Part shown: positions 2 to 41,880 of the stretch, piece after piece | Layout of the letters: every line of letters starts with the position of its first letter | How positions within the stretch are numbered: position 1 is the first letter of the stretch | Assembly (NCBI GenBank): GCA_045531455.1 | Contig: JAZSEA010000060.1 | Coordinates: 5,236-69,235, forward strand | Length of the DNA stretch: 64,000 nucleotides | Source: Eubacteriales bacterium | Lineage (GTDB): Bacteria; Bacillota; Clostridia; Oscillospirales; CAG-272 | Direction of reading: 5' to 3' | Notes under the pieces: model-generated | Database searches by the model: none | What the model was told of the DNA's origin: nothing | The model's input: the letters and a program-made list of their open reading frames with translations, nothing else | Translations under genes and position numbers: made by a program

Positions 2-610
2 ACCGATGTACTTCTCGGTAATGCGAAGAAAACGAAAGAGGAATTATCGGAGGAGATAAAAAGTATCAACTCTGCATGGAGCGGTAATGAAGGAGATAAT
101 AAAAATTATGGCGAAAGATACGCAAAATTATATTGTTTGCTCAAATCGAATCCGGATTCGTTAGAGCTTTTGCGTTCGATTATTAATCTATCGATCAAAT
201 GGCTTTTGGAGTGCTCGGAAGAATTAAGCGATGCTAAAAAGAATGAGATTGTATGTAATGCAGAAAAAATTGCAGAAAAGCTCCGTAATAACCCGGAGGA
301 TATCTATTCATCGCATTGTTCGATGTATGAAGTGTATTTTCGTGCGGGAAATAAAGAAAAGGCGGAAGAGGAATTAATGTATTTTTCTGCTAGCGGACAA
401 TACACCCGTGACCGTGCAAGATATATGCATTTACTGATGGATGATAAATACGAGGATGCTTTGCCATATATCGAAAGCTCATTGCGATATACGTTGCATT
501 GGTTGTGTTGGGATATTGGTCGCTTAAAAAGTGTAGGGAAAAAACTAAATAATCCGGAAGCTGAAATGCGGATTTCTGCAATTAAGGAAGCATTATTATC
601 AGAAATATAA
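2..610 (+). CDS. hypothetical alpha-helical protein, 5'-partial
   Basis: The frame is open from base 2 to the TAA at 608-610. The track ORF 137..610 begins at an internal TTG. The region is visibly AT-rich compared with its neighbours, and I recognise no motif. Confidence 0.5.
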   Translation, partial: TDVLLGNAKKTKEELSEEIKSINSAWSGNEGDNKNYGERYAKLYCLLKSNPDSLELLRSIINLSIKWLLECSEELSDAKKNEIVCNAEKIAEKLRNNPEDIYSSHCSMYEVYFRAGNKEKAEEELMYFSASGQYTRDRARYMHLLMDDKYEDALPYIESSLRYTLHWLCWDIGRLKSVGKKLNNPEAEMRISAIKEALLSEI

Positions 611-623
611 CAATACATAATCA

Positions 624-646
624 AGGGAGCCGAAATTCGACTCCCT
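624..646 (+). terminator. candidate stem-loop terminator after the first CDS
   Basis: AGGGAG...CTCCCT stem followed by GTAATTTT. It lies 14 nt after the stop codon. Confidence 0.4.
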
Positions 647-650
647 GTAA

Positions 651-687
651 TTTTGCATTTTGCATTCTGCATTCTGCATTTTGTATT
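651..687. repeat. heptamer tract (YTGCATT)x5, a half copy of the heptamer-armed hairpin family
   Basis: Reads TTTTGCATTTTGCATTCTGCATTCTGCATTTTGTATT. It sits between convergent genes and abuts the iorB stop codon. Confidence 0.8.
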
Positions 688-15695: not shown

Positions 15696-15724
15696 TTGAC
15701 AAATAAGTTTGAAAGTGGTATAAT
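15696..15724 (+). promoter_or_regulatory. strong sigma-70-type promoter for the tRNA-Leu genes
   Basis: TTGACA, 17 nt, TGGTATAAT (extended -10), with A-tract-rich upstream DNA. It lies 24 nt upstream of the tRNA 5' end. Confidence 0.7.
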
Positions 15725-15747: not shown

Positions 15748-15832
15748 GCGAGAGTGGCGGAACTGGCAGACGCGCACGTTTGAGGGGCGTGTGGATAACA
15801 CCGTACGGGTTCAAGTCCCGTTTCTCGCACCA
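15748..15832 (+). tRNA. tRNA-Leu(GAG), class II, CCA encoded
   Basis: Manual cloverleaf: acceptor GCGAGAG/TTCTCGC (one G-U pair), anticodon loop TTGAGGG, T-arm ACGGG-TTCAAGT-CCCGT, and a long variable arm. Confidence 0.9.
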
Positions 15833-15873: not shown

Positions 15874-15977
15874 AATATGCGGATGTGTGCGGAACCAATT
15901 CCGCCGCATTAAGCAAACAAAACTTAATATGCGGATGTGTGCGGAACCAATTCCGCCGCATTAAGCATACAAAACTT
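15874..15977 (+). repeat. 2 x 52-bp tandem repeat carrying a palindromised copy of the tRNA-Leu(CAG) 5' end
   Basis: AATATGCGGATGTG recurs at 15874, 15926 and 15978, the last being the real tRNA start. The two units differ at one base. Confidence 0.9.
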
Positions 15978-15982
15978 AATAT

Positions 15983-16069
15983 GCGGATGTGGCGGAATTG
16001 GCAGACGCGCTAGATTCAGGTTCTAGTGGGGGCAGCTCCATATGGGTTCAAGTCCCTTCATCCGCACCA
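15983..16069 (+). tRNA. tRNA-Leu(CAG), class II, CCA encoded
   Basis: Manual cloverleaf: acceptor GCGGATG/CATCCGC, anticodon stem CTAGA/TCTAG with loop TTCAGGT, T-loop TTCAAGT. There is one T-T mismatch in the T-stem. Confidence 0.88.
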
Positions 16070-16109
16070 ACACAAAACGGGATGACCTTTGGTCATCCCG
16101 TTTTGTGTT
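16069..16109 (+). terminator. trailer hairpin/terminator after tRNA-Leu(CAG)
   Basis: 19-bp perfect stem AACACAAAACGGGATGACC/GGTCATCCCGTTTTGTGTT with a 3-nt loop. It begins at the terminal A of the CCA. Confidence 0.65.
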
Positions 16110-16129
16110 GGTATGAATTATATGGACGC

Positions 16130-16676
16130 CGAACCCCTTGATGTCGCTAGCGACATCAAAAATTTGCGCGCTATTGCAGCATAAAAGTATAATACCCAAT
16201 AATGCGCGCAAATAGGGGTTCGTAAGTCCCTTCATCGCGGTGGATTCTGACTGTCGCTAGCGGCATCAAAAATTTGCGCGCGATCGCAGCATAAAACTAT
16301 AATGCCCAATAATGCGCGCAAATAGGGGTTCGTAAGTCCCTTCATCGCGGTGGATTCTAACTGTCGCTAGCGACATCAAAAATTTGCGCGCTATTGCAGC
16401 ATAAAAGTATAATGCCCAATAATACGCGCAAATAGGGGTTCGTAGGTCCTTTCATCGCGGTGGATTCTAACTGTCGCTAGCGACATCAAAAATTTGCGCG
16501 CGATCGCAGCATAAAACTATAATACCCAATAATGCGCGCAAATAGGGGTTCGTAAGTCCCTTCATCGCGGTGGATTCTGACTGTCGCTAGCGACATCAAA
16601 AATTTGCGCGCTATTGCAGCATAAAAGTATAATGCCCGATAATGCGCGCAAATAGGGGTTCGTAAGTCCCTTTATC
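16130..16676 (+). repeat. tandem array of five 110-bp structured units with a tRNA-Leu T-arm mimic (tRNA-linked element, function unknown)
   Basis: GTCGCTAG recurs at 16143, 16253, 16363, 16473 and 16583. Each unit has a 12-22 bp palindrome, a 10-bp inverted repeat ATTTGCGCGC/GCGCGCAAAT, and GGGGTTCGTAAGTCCCTTCATCGCGGTGG. Confidence 0.95.
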
Positions 16677-16683
16677 CAAACTA

Positions 16684-17466
16684 TTATCCGAATACCTCGA
16701 TAAGCGCATTCAGAGCGTCCTCAATGACGGGAAGCTCGGGATGCCATTTCTTTTCCCACTCGAGCGAGAAATATCCGTCGTAACCTTGCTCTTCAAGATA
16801 CTCCGCCATAGCGCGCAAGGGAAGATCACCCTCGCCGGGAAGAACAAGCTTGTTGTCGGAAACGTCCTTGAGGTGTACGTGGCGTATCAGTGAAGAGAAA
16901 TGATCGCAGAAATCACGCCAATTATCTGCATAAGTCTGCCTCGTGTGGCAAATGTCCCAAATGAATCCGAAGTTGGGGTACTTACGGCATATCTCCGCAA
17001 CCGCGCCGAGCCTTTCAGCATTGTTGATATCTCCGTGCGTTTCAAGCAGAACGTCTACGTTTTTGTCAGACGCATATTGGCAAAGCTTCGAGATCCCACC
17101 TGCGATGCGAAGGAGACATTCGCCCTCATCTCCCTTGATATTGTTTCCGAAAACACGAATGGCACGGAATCCTATCTCTTGCGCAACGTCAATCGCGTAA
17201 AAACCTTCTTCAAGGAAATTATCAAGCTTTGACTCATCGTGAAACTTGCACGAAGTTCCGAGAACGAGCGGTGTTACGCCGCATTTTGCAAAAGTCGCCT
17301 TGGTCGCTTGACGGTTTTCGGGTAGAAGCTCCGCCATCTTGCGGATATCTACCTCGCCGCAAAGTCCGCGAAGCTCGAGAGCATCGACCGAAAAGCTCTG
17401 CGCAAGCGTAAGTACCTCGTCGAGGCTCCTTTCGGTGCATCCGAGCGTTGAAAAGCATAATTTCAT
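16684..17466 (-). CDS. sugar phosphate isomerase/epimerase (xylose isomerase-like TIM barrel)
   Basis: Family-typical segments LELRG, VLLETHG and YDGYFSLEWE. The start is set at MKLCFSTLGC (GGAAGGA RBS). The longer track ORF runs into the pnuC gene. Confidence 0.75.
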   Translation of the reverse strand: MKLCFSTLGCTERSLDEVLTLAQSFSVDALELRGLCGEVDIRKMAELLPENRQATKATFAKCGVTPLVLGTSCKFHDESKLDNFLEEGFYAIDVAQEIGFRAIRVFGNNIKGDEGECLLRIAGGISKLCQYASDKNVDVLLETHGDINNAERLGAVAEICRKYPNFGFIWDICHTRQTYADNWRDFCDHFSSLIRHVHLKDVSDNKLVLPGEGDLPLRAMAEYLEEQGYDGYFSLEWEKKWHPELPVIEDALNALIEVFG

Positions 17467-17558: not shown

Positions 17559-18239
17559 TTATGATCTCTGCCTTTTCTCCATCCGTCTCCAGCTGATGAA
17601 GCCGTAAAGATCGTTTATAAGGAATGTGACGAAGCAAACCACGACGGAGACGTACGAGGGATCGTGAAACGACGCTATGACCCAAAGAATTATCAGTACG
17701 ACGTCGTTTGCAGCGTATGCAAGCGCAAAATAAGGACTCCTGCGGAAGGAAAGATAAACGGCGATAAAGCTCGTTGTGACGGAAAGCGTGCTTGGCAAGA
17801 GATTCGCGGTGTTGAAGAATTTCAGAATAAAATAGAAAATAAGCGTCACGGCCGCACTCAGTATCAGCATAAAAATCACTTCCTTGCGCCCGATCCTGTT
17901 AACCCTGACCTCGGATTTATTGCCGTTGTAGGGATTTTTAAGCCACGATATCAATGCAAATACCGCCATCGGGCAGGTCATACCGAGATAGGTAAGCATC
18001 TCGCCGTAATAAGCAAAGGAAAGCGATATAATGGCGTAGATTACGCTGAAAATGACCATAAGCAGCTGACCGAAGGGATTGCCCTTGGCGCAGAAGATAA
18101 GCGATGTCGCGCCTATCAGCGAGGCTATCAGCGTCAGCTCTCCCGAACGGTCAAATATCAAGTAAAAGAGCGTGATAAGTAAGAGGGAAGACCCCCATAA
18201 AGCAAGCTCAAATCTGCTGAAATATTTCGTAAGCTTCAT
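17559..18239 (-). CDS. pnuC: nicotinamide riboside transporter PnuC family
   Basis: Seven-TM protein with family-typical segments (WLKNPY, FISWRRM). The start is MKLTKYF with a GGAGG RBS. Confidence 0.75.
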   Translation of the reverse strand: MKLTKYFSRFELALWGSSLLLITLFYLIFDRSGELTLIASLIGATSLIFCAKGNPFGQLLMVIFSVIYAIISLSFAYYGEMLTYLGMTCPMAVFALISWLKNPYNGNKSEVRVNRIGRKEVIFMLILSAAVTLIFYFILKFFNTANLLPSTLSVTTSFIAVYLSFRRSPYFALAYAANDVVLIILWVIASFHDPSYVSVVVCFVTFLINDLYGFISWRRMEKRQRS

Positions 18240-18334
18240 AATTCCTCCAAAAAATAAGCATCCGAGACGCATCTTCAAAGACCTAACGATGCGCTCGAAT
18301 GCTACTACCCGGTGGCAGTTATTGATTTTTCTTA
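18240..18334 (-). promoter_or_regulatory. pnuC 5' leader with an intrinsic-terminator attenuator (candidate riboswitch or attenuator)
   Basis: About 95-nt leader. A 16-bp stem (18257-18273 pairing with 18288-18303) is followed on the minus strand by TTATTTTTTGGAGG, which runs into the RBS. Confidence 0.45.
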
Positions 18335-38642: not shown

Positions 38643-38779
38643 GAGTGCAGAGTGCAGAATGCAGAATGCAGAGTTAATGAAAATTTCCTCGCAATGCTCG
38701 GAAATAATTTTATAAAATGCTTTTCGGCTCGCCGAAAAGCTACCTTAACTCTGCACTCTGCACTCTGAACTCTGCACTC
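38643..38779. repeat. heptamer-armed inverted repeat (full copy) with inner hairpin
   Basis: 35-nt arms (38643-38677 and 38745-38779) built of GCAGAGT/GCAGAAT heptamers match at 32 of 35 positions. The inner hairpin GCTTTTCGG-ctcg-CCGAAAAGC lies at 38719-38740. Confidence 0.85.
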
Positions 38780-41325: not shown

Positions 41326-41446
41326 AGTTTTTTTAATAAAATAGCGAAAAAAATTGCTTAAGCAAATTTTTACCTTAACATTCCGCCAAAGGCGGAATAT
41401 TTCACTCGCGCAGCGGCACCAAATAAGGCACCCAACCGCTAGGCGG

Positions 41447-41571
41447 TACATAGGGCGGGACTTACGAACCCATATTTGCGCGTGATGTGCTGAAATAAAC
41501 TTATAAGGATCAGCGCAAATTTTTCGTGTTGCTTTGCAACACGAAGTGGGTTCGAGTATGCGATCTGTACG
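41447..41571 (-). repeat. single diverged copy of the tRNA-linked structured element
   Basis: Same order and orientation relative to its tRNA as the 16-kb array. Stem coordinates: S1 41547-41554/41465-41472, S2 41523-41545, S3 41474-41520. The T-arm mimic GGGTTCGTAAGTCCCGCC is on the minus strand. Confidence 0.85.
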
Positions 41572-41612
41572 AAATAAGGCACCCAACCGCTAGGCGGTTG
41601 GGTGCCTTATTT
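41572..41612 (-). terminator. trailer hairpin/terminator after tRNA-Leu(CAA)
   Basis: 19-bp perfect stem with a 3-nt loop, beginning at the terminal A of the CCA and followed by a T-rich tract on the minus strand. Confidence 0.65.
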
Positions 41613-41698
41613 GGTGCCGGTGGCGGGACTTGAACCCGCACGATATTGCTACCAACGGATTTTGAGTCCGTCGCGTCTGCCGATTCCGCCACACCGGC
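41612..41698 (-). tRNA. tRNA-Leu(CAA), class II, CCA encoded
   Basis: Manual cloverleaf: acceptor GCCGGTG/CACCGGC, anticodon stem ACGGA/TCCGT with loop CTCAAAA, T-arm GCGGG-TTCAAGT-CCCGC. Confidence 0.9.
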
Positions 41699-41708
41699 GT
41701 TCTTGCAT

Positions 41709-41737
41709 ATTATATCACAAATCACCGAGAAAATCAA
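41709..41737 (-). promoter_or_regulatory. sigma-70-type promoter for tRNA-Leu(CAA)
   Basis: On the minus strand: TTGATT, 17 nt, TGATATAAT. The tRNA 5' end lies 10 nt after the -10. Confidence 0.65.
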
Positions 41738-41880
41738 TACTTATTATTGAATTGATTTGAAAAATGTGTTATAATGGTATCAGTCGGTGAATTTTCAACA
41801 ATTCTTGATTTATAATTGAAGAACAATTTAGTTTTGTATAGTATAATGTATCAGTAAAAATATACCTTGGAGGCAAATAA

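Follow-up and report, generated by a model that had tools for sequence, protein, structure and literature searches.

A gene-less, hairpin-rich module tied to tRNA-Leu genes and amplified in tandem in a Eubacteriales bacterium

tRNA genes are classic landing pads for mobile DNA, and the smallest residents of tRNA genes and the remains of decayed elements are poorly catalogued. REP/BIME, ERIC, Correia and RUP elements and MITEs are short non-coding hairpins with inverted repeats of 8-15 bp, which lie at gene ends, are sometimes clustered and can serve as terminators or RNA-stability elements. Mycobacterial MIRUs are intergenic head-to-tail units of ~50-110 bp with strain-variable copy number. 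Integron attC and CTX-phage attP(+) are folded single-strand sites in which imperfect inverted repeats pair within the strand, structure is more conserved than sequence and the loops are variable. A functional non-coding RNA, 3'ETS-leuZ of E. coli, is part of a tRNA-Leu trailer, where it precedes the terminator, and works by single-stranded pairing with sRNAs. Among integrated elements, Dehalococcoides ssrA islands have left behind tandem direct repeats of the 3' end of the gene (PMC3146451), and CIMEs are described as decayed elements without genes that retain attL and attR and undergo tandem accretion (PMC5704250).

Here we describe an array in which a gene-less and hairpin-rich module, lineage-specific and tied to tRNA-Leu genes, has been amplified in tandem. 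The array lies in a 64-kb stretch of Eubacteriales DNA, which is called the window below. Like tRNA and tmRNA att duplications, the locus has a direct repeat of the 3' part of an RNA gene downstream of that gene, with the joint in the T-loop (PMC5704250, PMC3146451). Further common traits are a conserved element-specific motif directly before each repeat, tandem repetition and the possible lack of genes. In contrast to att-duplication elements, the element measures only 110-170 bp, carries no cargo, has no integrase within 64 kb and forms exactly periodic units. Its element side is a covarying three-way junction that starts with an inverted T-arm copy, and its mobility is something that we infer only. 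The locus thus represents a compact gene-less case (100-110 bp) in which T-loop joint, element-side structure and tandem amplification can be read directly.

The array behind tRNA-Leu(CAG) and its module

The array is surrounded by core genes, e.g. those for POR, PlsY, ClpC and L19, and has as its immediate neighbours the tRNA-Leu(CAG) terminator and the stop codon of a sugar-phosphate isomerase gene in convergent orientation. The features of this first locus are:

15748-15832, plus strand: tRNA-Leu(GAG), first of the tRNA pair (ARAGORN; Rfam tRNA model, 44.6 bits)
15874-15997, plus strand: 52-bp tandem repeat in 2.4 copies, upstream of tRNA-Leu(CAG) (TRF, repeat search)
15983-16069, plus strand: tRNA-Leu(CAG) (ARAGORN, Rfam), 100% identical in the related assembly L003
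16066-16112, no strand assigned: 22-bp perfect hairpin beginning in the tRNA ACCA (repeat search)
16125-16137, plus strand: P1 5' strand, an inverted T-arm-like copy, CGAACCCC (16130-16137), extended GAC..
16138-16159, plus strand: P2, a 22-nt perfect palindrome, TTGATGTCGC-TA-GCGACATCAA (repeat search)
16162-16213, plus strand: P3, stem ATTTGCGCGC/GCGCGCAAAT with a 32-nt AT-rich loop (repeat search, folds)
16214-16236, plus strand: T-arm mimic AGGGGTTCGTAAGTCCCTTCATC
16142-16676, plus strand: five-unit tandem array of pattern A-B-A-B-A, with unit starts at 16142, 16252, 16362, 16472 and 16582
16684-17466, minus strand: convergent sugar-phosphate isomerase/epimerase gene (PF01261 in homologues)

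Tandem Repeats Finder reported positions 16142-16676 as an array with period 110, 4.9 copies, 93% matches, no indels and a score of 958. The five units at an exact 110-bp period that the first-pass annotation had read from the letters were recovered (GTCGCTAGCGAC... at 16143, 16253, 16363, 16473 and 16583), as were the two alternating loop variants, CTATTGCAGCATAAAAGTAT in units 1, 3 and 5 and CGATCGCAGCATAAAACTAT in units 2 and 4. The A-B-A-B-A order fits the suggested growth by duplication of a 220-bp dimer, and identity in the 220-nt register is 94-96%. The fifth and last unit is incomplete and stops at CTTTATC. A T-arm-like 26-mer occurs five times in the array, against zero expected from shuffles. 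Two positions had to be corrected: the array, said to start 21 nt past the hairpin, begins 17 nt from it if the closing strand is counted and 29 nt from it if the periodic array is meant, and it does lie directly before the convergent stop codon (16684-16686) but ends 7 nt short of it rather than at the stop. No ORF spans the array and 110 is not a multiple of 3, both as annotated, which rules out a protein-coding reading. A CRISPR array was likewise rejected, since identity of 93-98% extends over the entire 110-bp unit and spacers are absent.

Five independent assemblies from related uncultured Eubacteriales carry the array at the corresponding place, which dispels the earlier concern about an assembly artefact. 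As in a VNTR or minisatellite, the units are arranged head-to-tail and their number is unequal between strains, with five in the window, three each in L003 and L005 and two each in L006 and L007, where the relatives are short-read assemblies in which repeats may be collapsed. The contig of L004 stops inside the array, and L007 keeps a longer junction of 122 nt in which the left arm CCCC-TTGATG is still present. The array thereby resembles MIRUs, which are also intergenic head-to-tail units of differing copy number. It differs from them in that a diverged homologue of its unit stands as a single copy at a second tRNA gene, and in that the unit is under structural constraint and contains a tRNA fragment.

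The complete module of ~100 bp consists of an inverted T-arm-like arm, hairpin P2, hairpin P3 and a direct T-arm-like arm, and in single-stranded form it is predicted to adopt a three-way junction. The predicted three-stem fold of 16125-16245 has -45.2 kcal/mol and z = -5.6, and none of 200 shuffles was equally good. The closing strand CGAACCCC (16130-16137) is indeed present before unit 1 only and closes this fold, as had been noted. Units 2-5 cannot form the three-way junction because the P1 5' strand is missing there; in these units P2 retains the inner 14 nt only, so that the repeated 110-bp unit is a 5'-truncated module without inverted arm. The 8-bp core of P3 is invariant across all copies. 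In L003 the P1 5' strand reads GGACTTAGAACCCC, compared with GGGACTTGAACCC for the reverse complement of the T-arm, and the inverted arms extend to 15 nt, with GGACTTA-GAACCCC facing the reverse complement of GGGGTTCGTAAGTCC. T-arm and acceptor start of tRNA-Leu(CAG) are copied in every array unit, where GGGTTCgtAAGTCCCTTCATC equals GGGTTCAAGTCCCTTCATC of the tRNA except for the GT insertion already recognised in the first pass. The mimic comprises the T-arm plus 3-6 further nt, and its T-loop is 9 nt long rather than 7. Formation of P1 precludes the mimic hairpin and vice versa, because the first 8 nt of the mimic after its A are the P1 3' strand.

The 110-bp unit is therefore a real, conserved, hairpin-forming non-coding module. 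In being short, non-coding, hairpin-forming and bounded by inverted repeats it resembles REP/BIME, ERIC, Correia and RUP elements, and the 8 bp of P1 amount to terminal inverted repeats as in MITEs. In contrast to REP elements and MITEs, no target-site duplication flanks the inverted repeats at either locus, no transposase or RAYT gene was seen, the module occurs behind tRNA-Leu genes only in the DNA examined, and its inverted repeats are copies of the T-arm of the neighbouring tRNA.

A second module behind tRNA-Leu(CAA) and the hybrid T-arm joints

The sixth copy that the first-pass annotation had counted in the window exists, but it is a diverged single module on the minus strand rather than a further array unit. 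It lies behind a second tRNA-Leu gene:

41612-41698, minus strand: tRNA-Leu(CAA), the second module-bearing tRNA gene (ARAGORN; Rfam, 61.3 bits)
41571-41611, minus strand: terminator hairpin of tRNA-Leu(CAA), an imperfect palindrome reaching into the tRNA 3' end (31 nt, 84%)
41454-41554, minus strand: single diverged module (nhmmer E = 1.3e-7; covariance model, 87.3 bits)
41411-41447, minus strand: repeat of the terminator loop and 3' arm of this locus, 151 nt from the first copy (30 nt, 97%)

The order within 41454-41554 is CGAACCCA - TTCGTGTTGC aaa GCAACACGAA - ATTTGCGC [31 nt] GCGCAAAT - a - TGGGTTCG TAAGTCCCGCC, and the same three-way junction as at locus 1 is predicted (-36.2 kcal/mol, z = -5.25). 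Behind the module, the terminator copy at 41411-41447 continues into sequence complementary to the tRNA 3' end, so that the module is flanked by an att-like or tandem duplication (repeat search). A second terminator-like hairpin is located downstream of the module. The first tRNA of the locus-1 pair, tRNA-Leu(GAG), has no module downstream, and its consensus promoter TTGACA-17-TGnTATAAT is found at 15696-15724.

The right ends of the modules are informative with respect to their origin. The tRNA(CAG) sequence ATATGGGTTC--AAGTCCCTTCATCCGC corresponds to AATAGGGGTTCGTAAGTCCCTTCATCGCG in its mimic, and tRNA(CAA) GTGCGGGTTC--AAGTCCCGCCACCGG to AATATGGGTTCGTAAGTCCCGCCCTAT, so that both loci carry an identical GT at an identical T-loop position. 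Each mimic is a hybrid whose left half GGGTTCGT is common to both loci and whose right half comes from the local tRNA, the two being joined in the T-loop. The module-specific left half reads ...GCGCAAATA-N-GGGTTCGT; the local right half starts with AAGTCCC and goes on through the T-stem and the first acceptor bases, followed at locus 2 by part of the local terminator. The mark of an att duplication, namely that the 3' part of the tRNA is repeated at the far end of the insert and joined in the T-loop, is thus present at both loci, with the joint after GGGTTCGT. At locus 1 the direct repeat comprises the 13 nt AAGTCCCTTCATC, and at locus 2 it consists of AAGTCCCGCC and a further 30-50 nt of terminator; in L088, ~50 nt are duplicated at locus 2, spacer and inverted arm included.

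The hybrid copy of each tRNA's T-arm therefore points to recombination inside the tRNA T-loop. Joints of this kind are the attR-type signature of T-loop integrating elements, for which reason we tentatively prefer to see in the module a putative miniature, non-autonomous integrative or recombination module that is targeted to the T-loop and was amplified in tandem. The module right end would then be the recombination joint within the tRNA T-loop, and the module would be comparable to a cis-mobilizable element of which the attachment region alone is left. The recombinase acting on it would be encoded elsewhere and supplied in trans, and the conserved hairpins may be the cis sites which that enzyme needs. 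Successive att-like T-arm copies could have recombined to give the 110-bp array, or it could have grown by unequal crossing-over. We infer site-specific recombination as the cause, a trans-acting recombinase and any present-day mobility. The exchangeable segment of terminator plus spacer between tRNA and module and the use of this tRNA end by phages, both described below, also speak for a recombination module. Were the module mobile, it would offer a T-loop-specific recombinase a minimal substrate and help to find the enzyme and its site rules.

A miniature integrative element at the tRNA-Leu T-loop was also among the proposals of the first pass. The hybrid joints and the attL/attR-like duplication at locus 2 agree with it, but no recombinase gene, empty site or dispersed copy was found. 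A Pfam scan covering 55 of the 59 ORFs of at least 90 aa that were called heuristically in the 64-kb window, some of them without any Pfam match, detected no integrase, transposase or invertase; the four ORFs outside the scan are a 997-aa ABC-transporter-like protein, a 228-aa GDSL-lipase-like protein, the isomerase and an ECF sigma factor, whose homologues carry unrelated domains. Covariance-model and nhmmer searches of the window and 34 related loci yielded copies behind the two tRNA-Leu genes only, so that the expected tRNA linkage holds for all of them. No copy was found in phage, plasmid and viral collections; blastn against the phage and plasmid collections gave no match to the array, and scans of viral contigs did not detect the module. 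One match in a viral contig (L098) was rejected as chance similarity in a GC-rich coding region, and L100-L111 carry ordinary tRNA-Leu genes or att sites of phages or prophages, all of them without the module. Two of these viral contigs, L103 and L106, contain bare tRNA-Leu 3' halves with the same 26-nt end; this tRNA end is thus used by phages.

More distant searches returned few relatives. Among 185,579 species representatives the invariant 20-mer occurs in one (L003), in a search which the locus-2 variant, different by one base, would escape. In metagenome contigs a two-anchor pattern gave no match and an 18-mer gave 64 matches, all judged as chance by nhmmer; these negatives are weak because the collection evidently lacks the JGI contig of L007, which has both patterns. 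An exact look-up of the 162-aa neighbour protein led to contigs L001 and L002, which end before the array, and an exact look-up of the isomerase with either candidate start had no match. In isomerase homologues of 70-75% identity synteny is lost and a GH43 gene follows the isomerase, and a relative with a 72% identical sigma factor is without both tRNA and module. A full-text literature search found no description of this element. Whether the module is mobile or an RNA, 'tRNA fragments' beside tRNA genes in Clostridia MAGs can belong to organised elements and need not be noise.

A transfer of the module from tRNA(CAG) to tRNA(CAA) by a classical Int would need a 3' end that fits the recipient, so that the intact 3' end of tRNA(CAA) speaks for a history of greater complexity. 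In another lineage the module is behind tRNA-Leu(CAA) too, where the cassette of tRNA plus module is inverted relative to the flanking genes. Both lineages have the same locus-2 layout, and in both the displaced copy has lost the acceptor strand and the terminator 5' arm. This suggests vertical inheritance, and the conserved stems may reflect a function at the host level rather than selection at the level of the element. No inverted repeats were found at the breakpoints of the cassette inversion. An invertible promoter was considered and rejected, as the breakpoints lack inverted repeats and P2 always precedes P3.

Conservation of the stems

The module is carried by 5/5 related locus-1 and 9/9 related locus-2 assemblies. 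Across related assemblies the units are 95-99% identical, compared with ~88% for flanking DNA; for unit 1 of the window and L003 the value is 97.5%, against 86.5% for the neighbouring CDS and 88.6% for 6.6 kb of flank. At locus 2 the window and L088 agree in 16/16 positions of the P3 stem, in 20/20 of junction and mimic and in 18/20 of the P2 arms, where one pair is compensated, while the P3 loop matches in only 19/33 positions of a gapped alignment and the terminator hairpin in 24/40. Among eight complete modules three P2 columns changed on both sides with zero broken pairs, and P1 has one compensatory column. Covarying pairs were counted on a manual structural alignment, because MAFFT placed locus 2 one column out of register in P1. 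This stem-specific conservation between lineages means that the hairpins still matter to something. A covarying P2 hairpin and a three-way junction are atypical of double-stranded attP arms, and they count against a recombination module.

The first-pass annotation had proposed a tRNA-linked structured family, which stands as a description: a second diverged copy follows another tRNA-Leu gene and compensatory changes keep the junction. Action as an RNA is putative. As the main alternative to a recombination module it is possible, albeit doubtful, that the module is a structured non-coding or cis-acting RNA of tRNA-Leu units, i.e. a 3' trailer made by terminator read-through that takes part in tRNA-Leu maturation or turnover or serves as protein-binding or decoy RNA, with the T-arm decoy in P1 holding the anti-T-arm strand. 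The covariation in P2 and P1 and the same predicted junction at both loci (z = -5.6 and -5.25) argue for such an RNA, as do stems that are 90-100% conserved next to loops that are near random between lineages. Two P1 changes in L088 yield T.G pairs, which are tolerated in the tRNA-sense strand only, but two single-sided changes in outer P3 (win_u3, L003_u3) lead to C.A in that same sense strand. The tRNA linkage that persists despite inversion of the entire cassette and the second terminator-like hairpin after the locus-2 module also fit a transcript. However, the module lies beyond a strong terminator, units 2-5 lack the strand required for the junction, and the loops, the usual seed or ligand sites, are those parts that are not conserved. 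A promoter inside the units had been suggested; the hexamers TTGCGC-N18-TATAAT are present but fall below a simple sigma-70 scan, and as a conserved feature this promoter was rejected, since the second hexamer reads CATAAT or TATGAT in other units and the promoter is missing at locus 2. The covariation could be mimicked at the DNA level by palindrome-correcting template switching, and the hybrid T-arm joints and the duplicated terminator arm stay unexplained by an RNA.

With Rfam 15 at E up to 10, only the tRNAs pass at both loci, and the best matches of the unit are chance-level miRNA/sRNA hits of <27 bits compared with thresholds of 45-90. No unit is called as tRNA or tRNA pseudogene by ARAGORN or the Rfam tRNA model. 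The module resembles 3'ETS-leuZ as a non-coding sequence past a tRNA-Leu gene, but it lies after the terminator and its stems alone are conserved. If it is an RNA, it would be a tRNA-Leu-linked structured RNA missing from Rfam.

A binding array for a protein, be it iterons, a centromere-like site or an operator for a dimeric protein with specificity for the GTCGCTAGCGAC palindrome or for the inverted repeats of ATTTGCGC, is very improbable. It would explain a perfect palindrome of 14-22 bp at a fixed 110-bp period and the sequence-invariant 8-nt P3 arms. However, the palindrome at locus 2 differs by symmetric changes, its centre is variable (TA, TT, CA, AAA, CGG; 2-3 nt), and helical phase is not kept because the spacing of the ATTTGCGC arms varies between 31, 33 and 36 nt. 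Replication or partition genes and similarity to plasmids or phages were not found. The iteron or centromere proposal of the first pass is thus not supported, in view of the core-chromosome context, the missing rep/par genes, the compensatory changes in the palindrome and its variable-length centre.

We also considered, with doubt, a novel structured module family obligatorily tied to tRNA-Leu, in which two hairpins are clamped into a three-way junction by an anti-T-arm strand together with a T-arm decoy. It would serve either as a folded-strand attachment site through which a gene-less element recombines into the tRNA T-loop (cf. attC and CTX attP(+)) or as a trailer RNA acting on tRNA-Leu maturation. 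The module is like attC and attP(+) by analogy only, in that P1 pairing would rebuild a duplex resembling the T-arm of the tRNA gene. It differs from both in having neither R/L boxes nor a dif-like core, and we know of no link between the module and IntI or Xer.

Terminators and tRNA-derived repeats around the module

The 22-bp hairpin at 16066-16112 has a U-tract within its 3' arm and an A-tract in the 5' arm and is a bidirectional intrinsic terminator. The isomerase gene has its own promoter-like site (17530-17503), and no other terminator is located between its stop and the array. On the minus strand the unit is predicted to fold into a long interrupted hairpin followed by UUUUG, with a loop of 32 nt on the basic stem. 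A simple terminator scan (loop 3-8) did not report it, because the P3 loop exceeds 8 nt. In form, minus-strand P3 with its UUUUG resembles a terminator of the isomerase gene that converges on the array.

Upstream of tRNA-Leu(CAG), each 52-bp unit contains a direct copy of the tRNA 5' end and an inverted copy of tRNA nt 5-19; this repeat, present in one copy in L003 and in two each in L005 and L006, is the 5'-side counterpart to the 110-bp array, and T-loop integration does not explain it. Tandem repeats of direct and inverted partial tRNA copies are hence found at both ends of tRNA-Leu(CAG), as would be expected if the array were a passive by-product in which palindrome-driven template switching and slippage at tRNA gene ends create partial tRNA copies and finally a minisatellite. 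Any benefit, e.g. termination of the isomerase transcript by minus-strand P3 and the U-tract, would be incidental. The terminator palindrome, which continues into a degenerate inverted copy of the 3' third of the tRNA (shuffles 0/2000 in L003, 21-31/2000 at locus 2), and the layout of locus 2 as a 1.2-1.3-copy tandem repeat with a 151-nt period are consistent with such an origin. We regard it nevertheless as unlikely. It cannot explain why the same P2-P3-GGGTTCGT block with its GT follows two tRNA-Leu genes that are 25 kb apart on opposite strands, nor why compensated stems are conserved against unconserved loops. A role as terminator, moreover, is not called by the simple scan, and at locus 2, whichever way the cassette is oriented, there is no convergent gene that would need a terminator. 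Finally, the terminator plus spacer between tRNA-Leu(CAG) and the module occurs in two unrelated alleles among strains, whose distribution conflicts with the isomerase phylogeny.

The array behind tRNA-Leu(CAG) and its relatives

Tandem-repeat detection recovered an array at window positions 16142-16676 (period 110, 4.9 copies, 93% matches, 0 indels), in agreement with the first-pass annotation, which had described five units of exact 110-bp period and no ORF across them; we likewise found no ORF spanning the array. The alternation that it reported in the AT-rich loop, with one variant in units 1, 3 and 5 and another in units 2 and 4, was evident on direct reading, and the resulting A-B-A-B-A order fits duplication of a 220-bp dimer. 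Every unit ends, as claimed, in GGGGTTCGTAAGTCCCTTCATC, a mimic of the tRNA-Leu(CAG) T-arm with four acceptor bases and a GT inserted in the T-loop. The strand said to close a three-stem structure, CGAACCCC, is indeed present before unit 1 only, and the region 16125-16245 is predicted to fold into a three-way junction (-45.2 kcal/mol, z = -5.6). While this description was correct overall, small positional offsets in it were wrong. The relevant features are:

15983-16069, plus strand: tRNA-Leu(CAG), 5' neighbour of the array
16066-16112: perfect hairpin of tRNA-Leu(CAG), 22 bp
16130-16137: CGAACCCC
16142/3, 16252/3, 16362/3, 16472/3, 16582/3: starts of the array units
16684-16686: stop codon of the convergent sugar-phosphate isomerase gene, the array's other boundary

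An Rfam search of the array matched no family. The suggestion of iterons or a centromere-like site has no support from the context, and we regard it as very improbable. Directly upstream of tRNA-Leu(CAG) lies a 52-bp x 2.4 tandem repeat (15874-15997), which mirrors on the 5' side the 110-bp array on the 3' side. Each of its hairpin-forming units combines a direct copy of the first 14-20 nt of the tRNA with nt 5-19 copied in inverse orientation; among relatives the copy number is 1 in L003 and 2 in L005 and L006.

Scanning with an invariant 20-mer matched 1 of 185,579 species representatives, the MAG L003, labelled Eubacteriales bacterium, and four more assemblies (L004-L007) were reached through isomerase homologues. 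Because the array occupies one and the same position in all five, between tRNA-Leu(CAG) with its terminator and the isomerase stop, it is certainly no artefact of the window's assembly, a possibility that the first-pass annotation had raised. There are 3 units in L003 and in L005, 2 in L006, 2 in L007 (122-nt spacing, longer junction) and at least 2.3 in L004, whose contig ends inside the array; these counts come from short-read assemblies and may be underestimates. Unit 1 of the window matches that of L003 at 97.5% identity, against 86.5% for the adjacent CDS and 88.6% for 6.6 kb of flank. Comparison of all 17 units gave identities of 93-99% between lineages, no lower than inside one array, with the exception of an older terminal unit type (L003_u3/L007_u2, 85-89%). 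The ~60 bp of terminator and spacer between tRNA-Leu(CAG) and the module (16070-16129) exist as two unrelated alleles, one shared by the window and L007, the other by L003, L005 and L006. As this distribution conflicts with the isomerase tree, it indicates that the segment, bounded by conserved tRNA and module, recombines between lineages. A PnuC-like nicotinamide mononucleotide transporter gene (17559-18272), between the isomerase gene and a 554-aa gene, is missing from the corresponding position in L003 and L007.

A second module behind tRNA-Leu(CAA)

Searching the window with a unit profile yielded one further copy (minus strand, 41533-41456; E = 1.3e-7), which a covariance model widened to 41455-41554 (87 bits).

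41698-41612, minus strand: tRNA-Leu(CAA), with the module just past its terminator

In tRNA direction the module reads CGAACCCA-c-TTCGTGTTGC-aaa-GCAACACGAA-aa-ATTTGCGC-[31 nt]-GCGCAAAT-a-TGGGTTCG-TAAGTCCCGCC, and it is predicted to fold into the same three-way junction as the array locus (-36.2 kcal/mol, z = -5.25). The covariance-model search, run on the window and 34 related loci, found copies only behind the two tRNA-Leu genes and no further ones, in line with the tRNA linkage proposed earlier; all three tRNA genes in the window are tRNA-Leu, and the linkage is seen within that set.

Nine contigs of another lineage (L088-L097; sigma factor 83% identical) carry the module behind the same tRNA-Leu(CAA). 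In this lineage promoter, tRNA, terminator and module lie inverted as one cassette (window 41333-41790 vs L088 2008-2428) between response-regulator and ECF sigma genes that are collinear. The module thus travels with the tRNA and not with the neighbouring genes. The inversion breakpoints showed no inverted repeats.

Two more hairpins lie 3' of this module (41345-41405, minus strand). The first, ATTCCGCC-ttt-GGCGGAAT, is similar to the tRNA D-arm region, and the second, AAAAATTTGCTTAAGCAATTTTTTT, is an AT-rich, terminator-like palindrome. Between them and the sigma-factor gene comes a block resembling an ECF-type promoter (TGTAACC...GTCTA), which is conserved in L088.

Stems, loops and the structured-RNA alternative

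We aligned eight complete modules by hand according to structure and counted their pairs.

Helices of the predicted three-way junction
P1: 8 bp; C-G to A-T compensation in one column, T.G at two pairs of L088, a few mismatches in the array-locus relatives
P2: 10 bp; changes of both partners in three columns (one of them G-C, C-G, T-A), 0 broken pairs
P3: 8-bp core ATTTGCGC/GCGCAAAT invariant; 31-36-nt loop essentially unconserved

The centre of P2 varies freely (TA, TT, CA, AAA, CGG, TGG). At the tRNA-Leu(CAA) locus, the window and L088 agree in 16/16 positions of the P3 stem, 20/20 of junction and mimic and 18/20 of the P2 arms, vs 19/33 in the P3 loop (gapped alignment) and 24/40 in the terminator hairpin. 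Judged by these identities, high in stems and low in loops, the stems are constrained and the loops are not. The P1 3' strand doubles as the 5' half of the T-arm mimic, so that junction and mimic hairpin are mutually exclusive; the P1 5' strand is where an inverted, degenerate copy of the tRNA's 3' third ends, and this copy prolongs the terminator palindrome. Lacking this 5' strand, units 2-5 cannot form the junction as modelled.

Covariation, sense-strand T.G pairs, conservation confined to stems and linkage to tRNA all speak for a structured RNA linked to tRNA-Leu, the main rival to the reading proposed below. Yet the module sits past a strong terminator, has no conserved promoter and has unconserved loops, and an RNA would leave its hybrid joints without account; we consider this explanation possible but doubtful.

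Hybrid T-arm joints and proposed T-loop recombination

In the region of the joint, tRNA-Leu(CAG) itself has ATATGGGTTC--AAGTCCCTTCATCCGC and its mimic AATAGGGGTTCGTAAGTCCCTTCATCGCG; tRNA-Leu(CAA) has GTGCGGGTTC--AAGTCCCGCCACCGG and its mimic AATATGGGTTCGTAAGTCCCGCCCTAT. The left half of the mimic, including the GT, is common to both loci, and the right half is the local tRNA's own. Behind tRNA-Leu(CAA), local sequence recurs 7-8 unrelated bases after the mimic: in the window the terminator loop and 3' arm are repeated (30 nt, 97%), and in L088 ~50 nt, spacer and inverted arm included. Random slippage can hardly be a good source for two such joints, with the same T-loop position and the same two extra bases, behind two different genes. 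A passive origin by palindrome-driven template switching and slippage would account for the direct and inverted tRNA fragments on both sides of tRNA-Leu(CAG) and for the tandem expansions, and minus-strand P3 with its U-tract could serve as the isomerase gene's terminator. Since it explains neither the same block at two loci nor the stem-specific conservation, we think this origin unlikely.

In sequence, the joints are what T-loop site-specific recombination would leave behind. The tandem ssrA islands of Dehalococcoides are a close precedent (PMC3146451), and CIMEs are gene-less elements that keep attL and attR and accrete in tandem (PMC5704250). Two viral contigs, L103 (7665-7717) and L106 (4585-4633), contain bare tRNA-Leu 3' halves that start at the anticodon loop, run to CCA and share their 26-nt 3' end with the window's tRNA-Leu(CAG). 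Through these fragments phages probably attach to tRNA-Leu genes, which suggests that this tRNA-Leu end serves as an attachment site.

We tentatively propose, as our best reading, that the module is a miniature, non-autonomous recombination module targeted to the T-loop. It could be an integrative element of which only the attachment region is left, or descend from such an element by domestication, with the conserved hairpins as its cis sites. The 110-bp array would then have arisen as a 5'-truncated unit was amplified in tandem, through recombination between successive T-arm copies or unequal crossing-over. Several observations weigh against a recombination module. A Pfam search of 55 of the 59 heuristically called ORFs of at least 90 aa in the window revealed neither integrase nor transposase nor invertase; the loci and collections searched yielded neither an empty site nor a dispersed copy; and an element with a CAG-type 3' end could not restore tRNA-Leu(CAA). 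The architecture shared by two lineages at tRNA-Leu(CAA) points to vertical descent, and with it to in-situ selection; attP arms do not usually form a covarying three-way junction; and this reading does not account for the 52-bp repeat 5' of tRNA-Leu(CAG). Att duplications/CIMEs, MITE/REP-type palindromic repeats and VNTRs all have features in common with the element, but it shows only part of the set that defines each. We class it as a tRNA-flank recombination or palindromic repeat element; that it represents a new family of tRNA-Leu-linked structured elements is conceivable, though we would not expect it.

Other repeats occur elsewhere in the window. Two intergenic arrays of a 7-bp repeat, GAGTGCA x 4.6 (38643-38674) and its reverse complement ACTCTGC x 4.6 (38748-38779), face each other ~70 bp apart across a spacer with a small hairpin, GCTTTTCGGCTCGCCGAAAAGC; by sequence the site resembles an operator of heptad iterons, or else one large, composite inverted repeat. 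A further 7-bp repeat, ATTTTGC x 5.4 (650-687), lies partly within the first ORF (304-672, minus strand), at its 5' end, and partly in the short gap that separates this ORF from the next.
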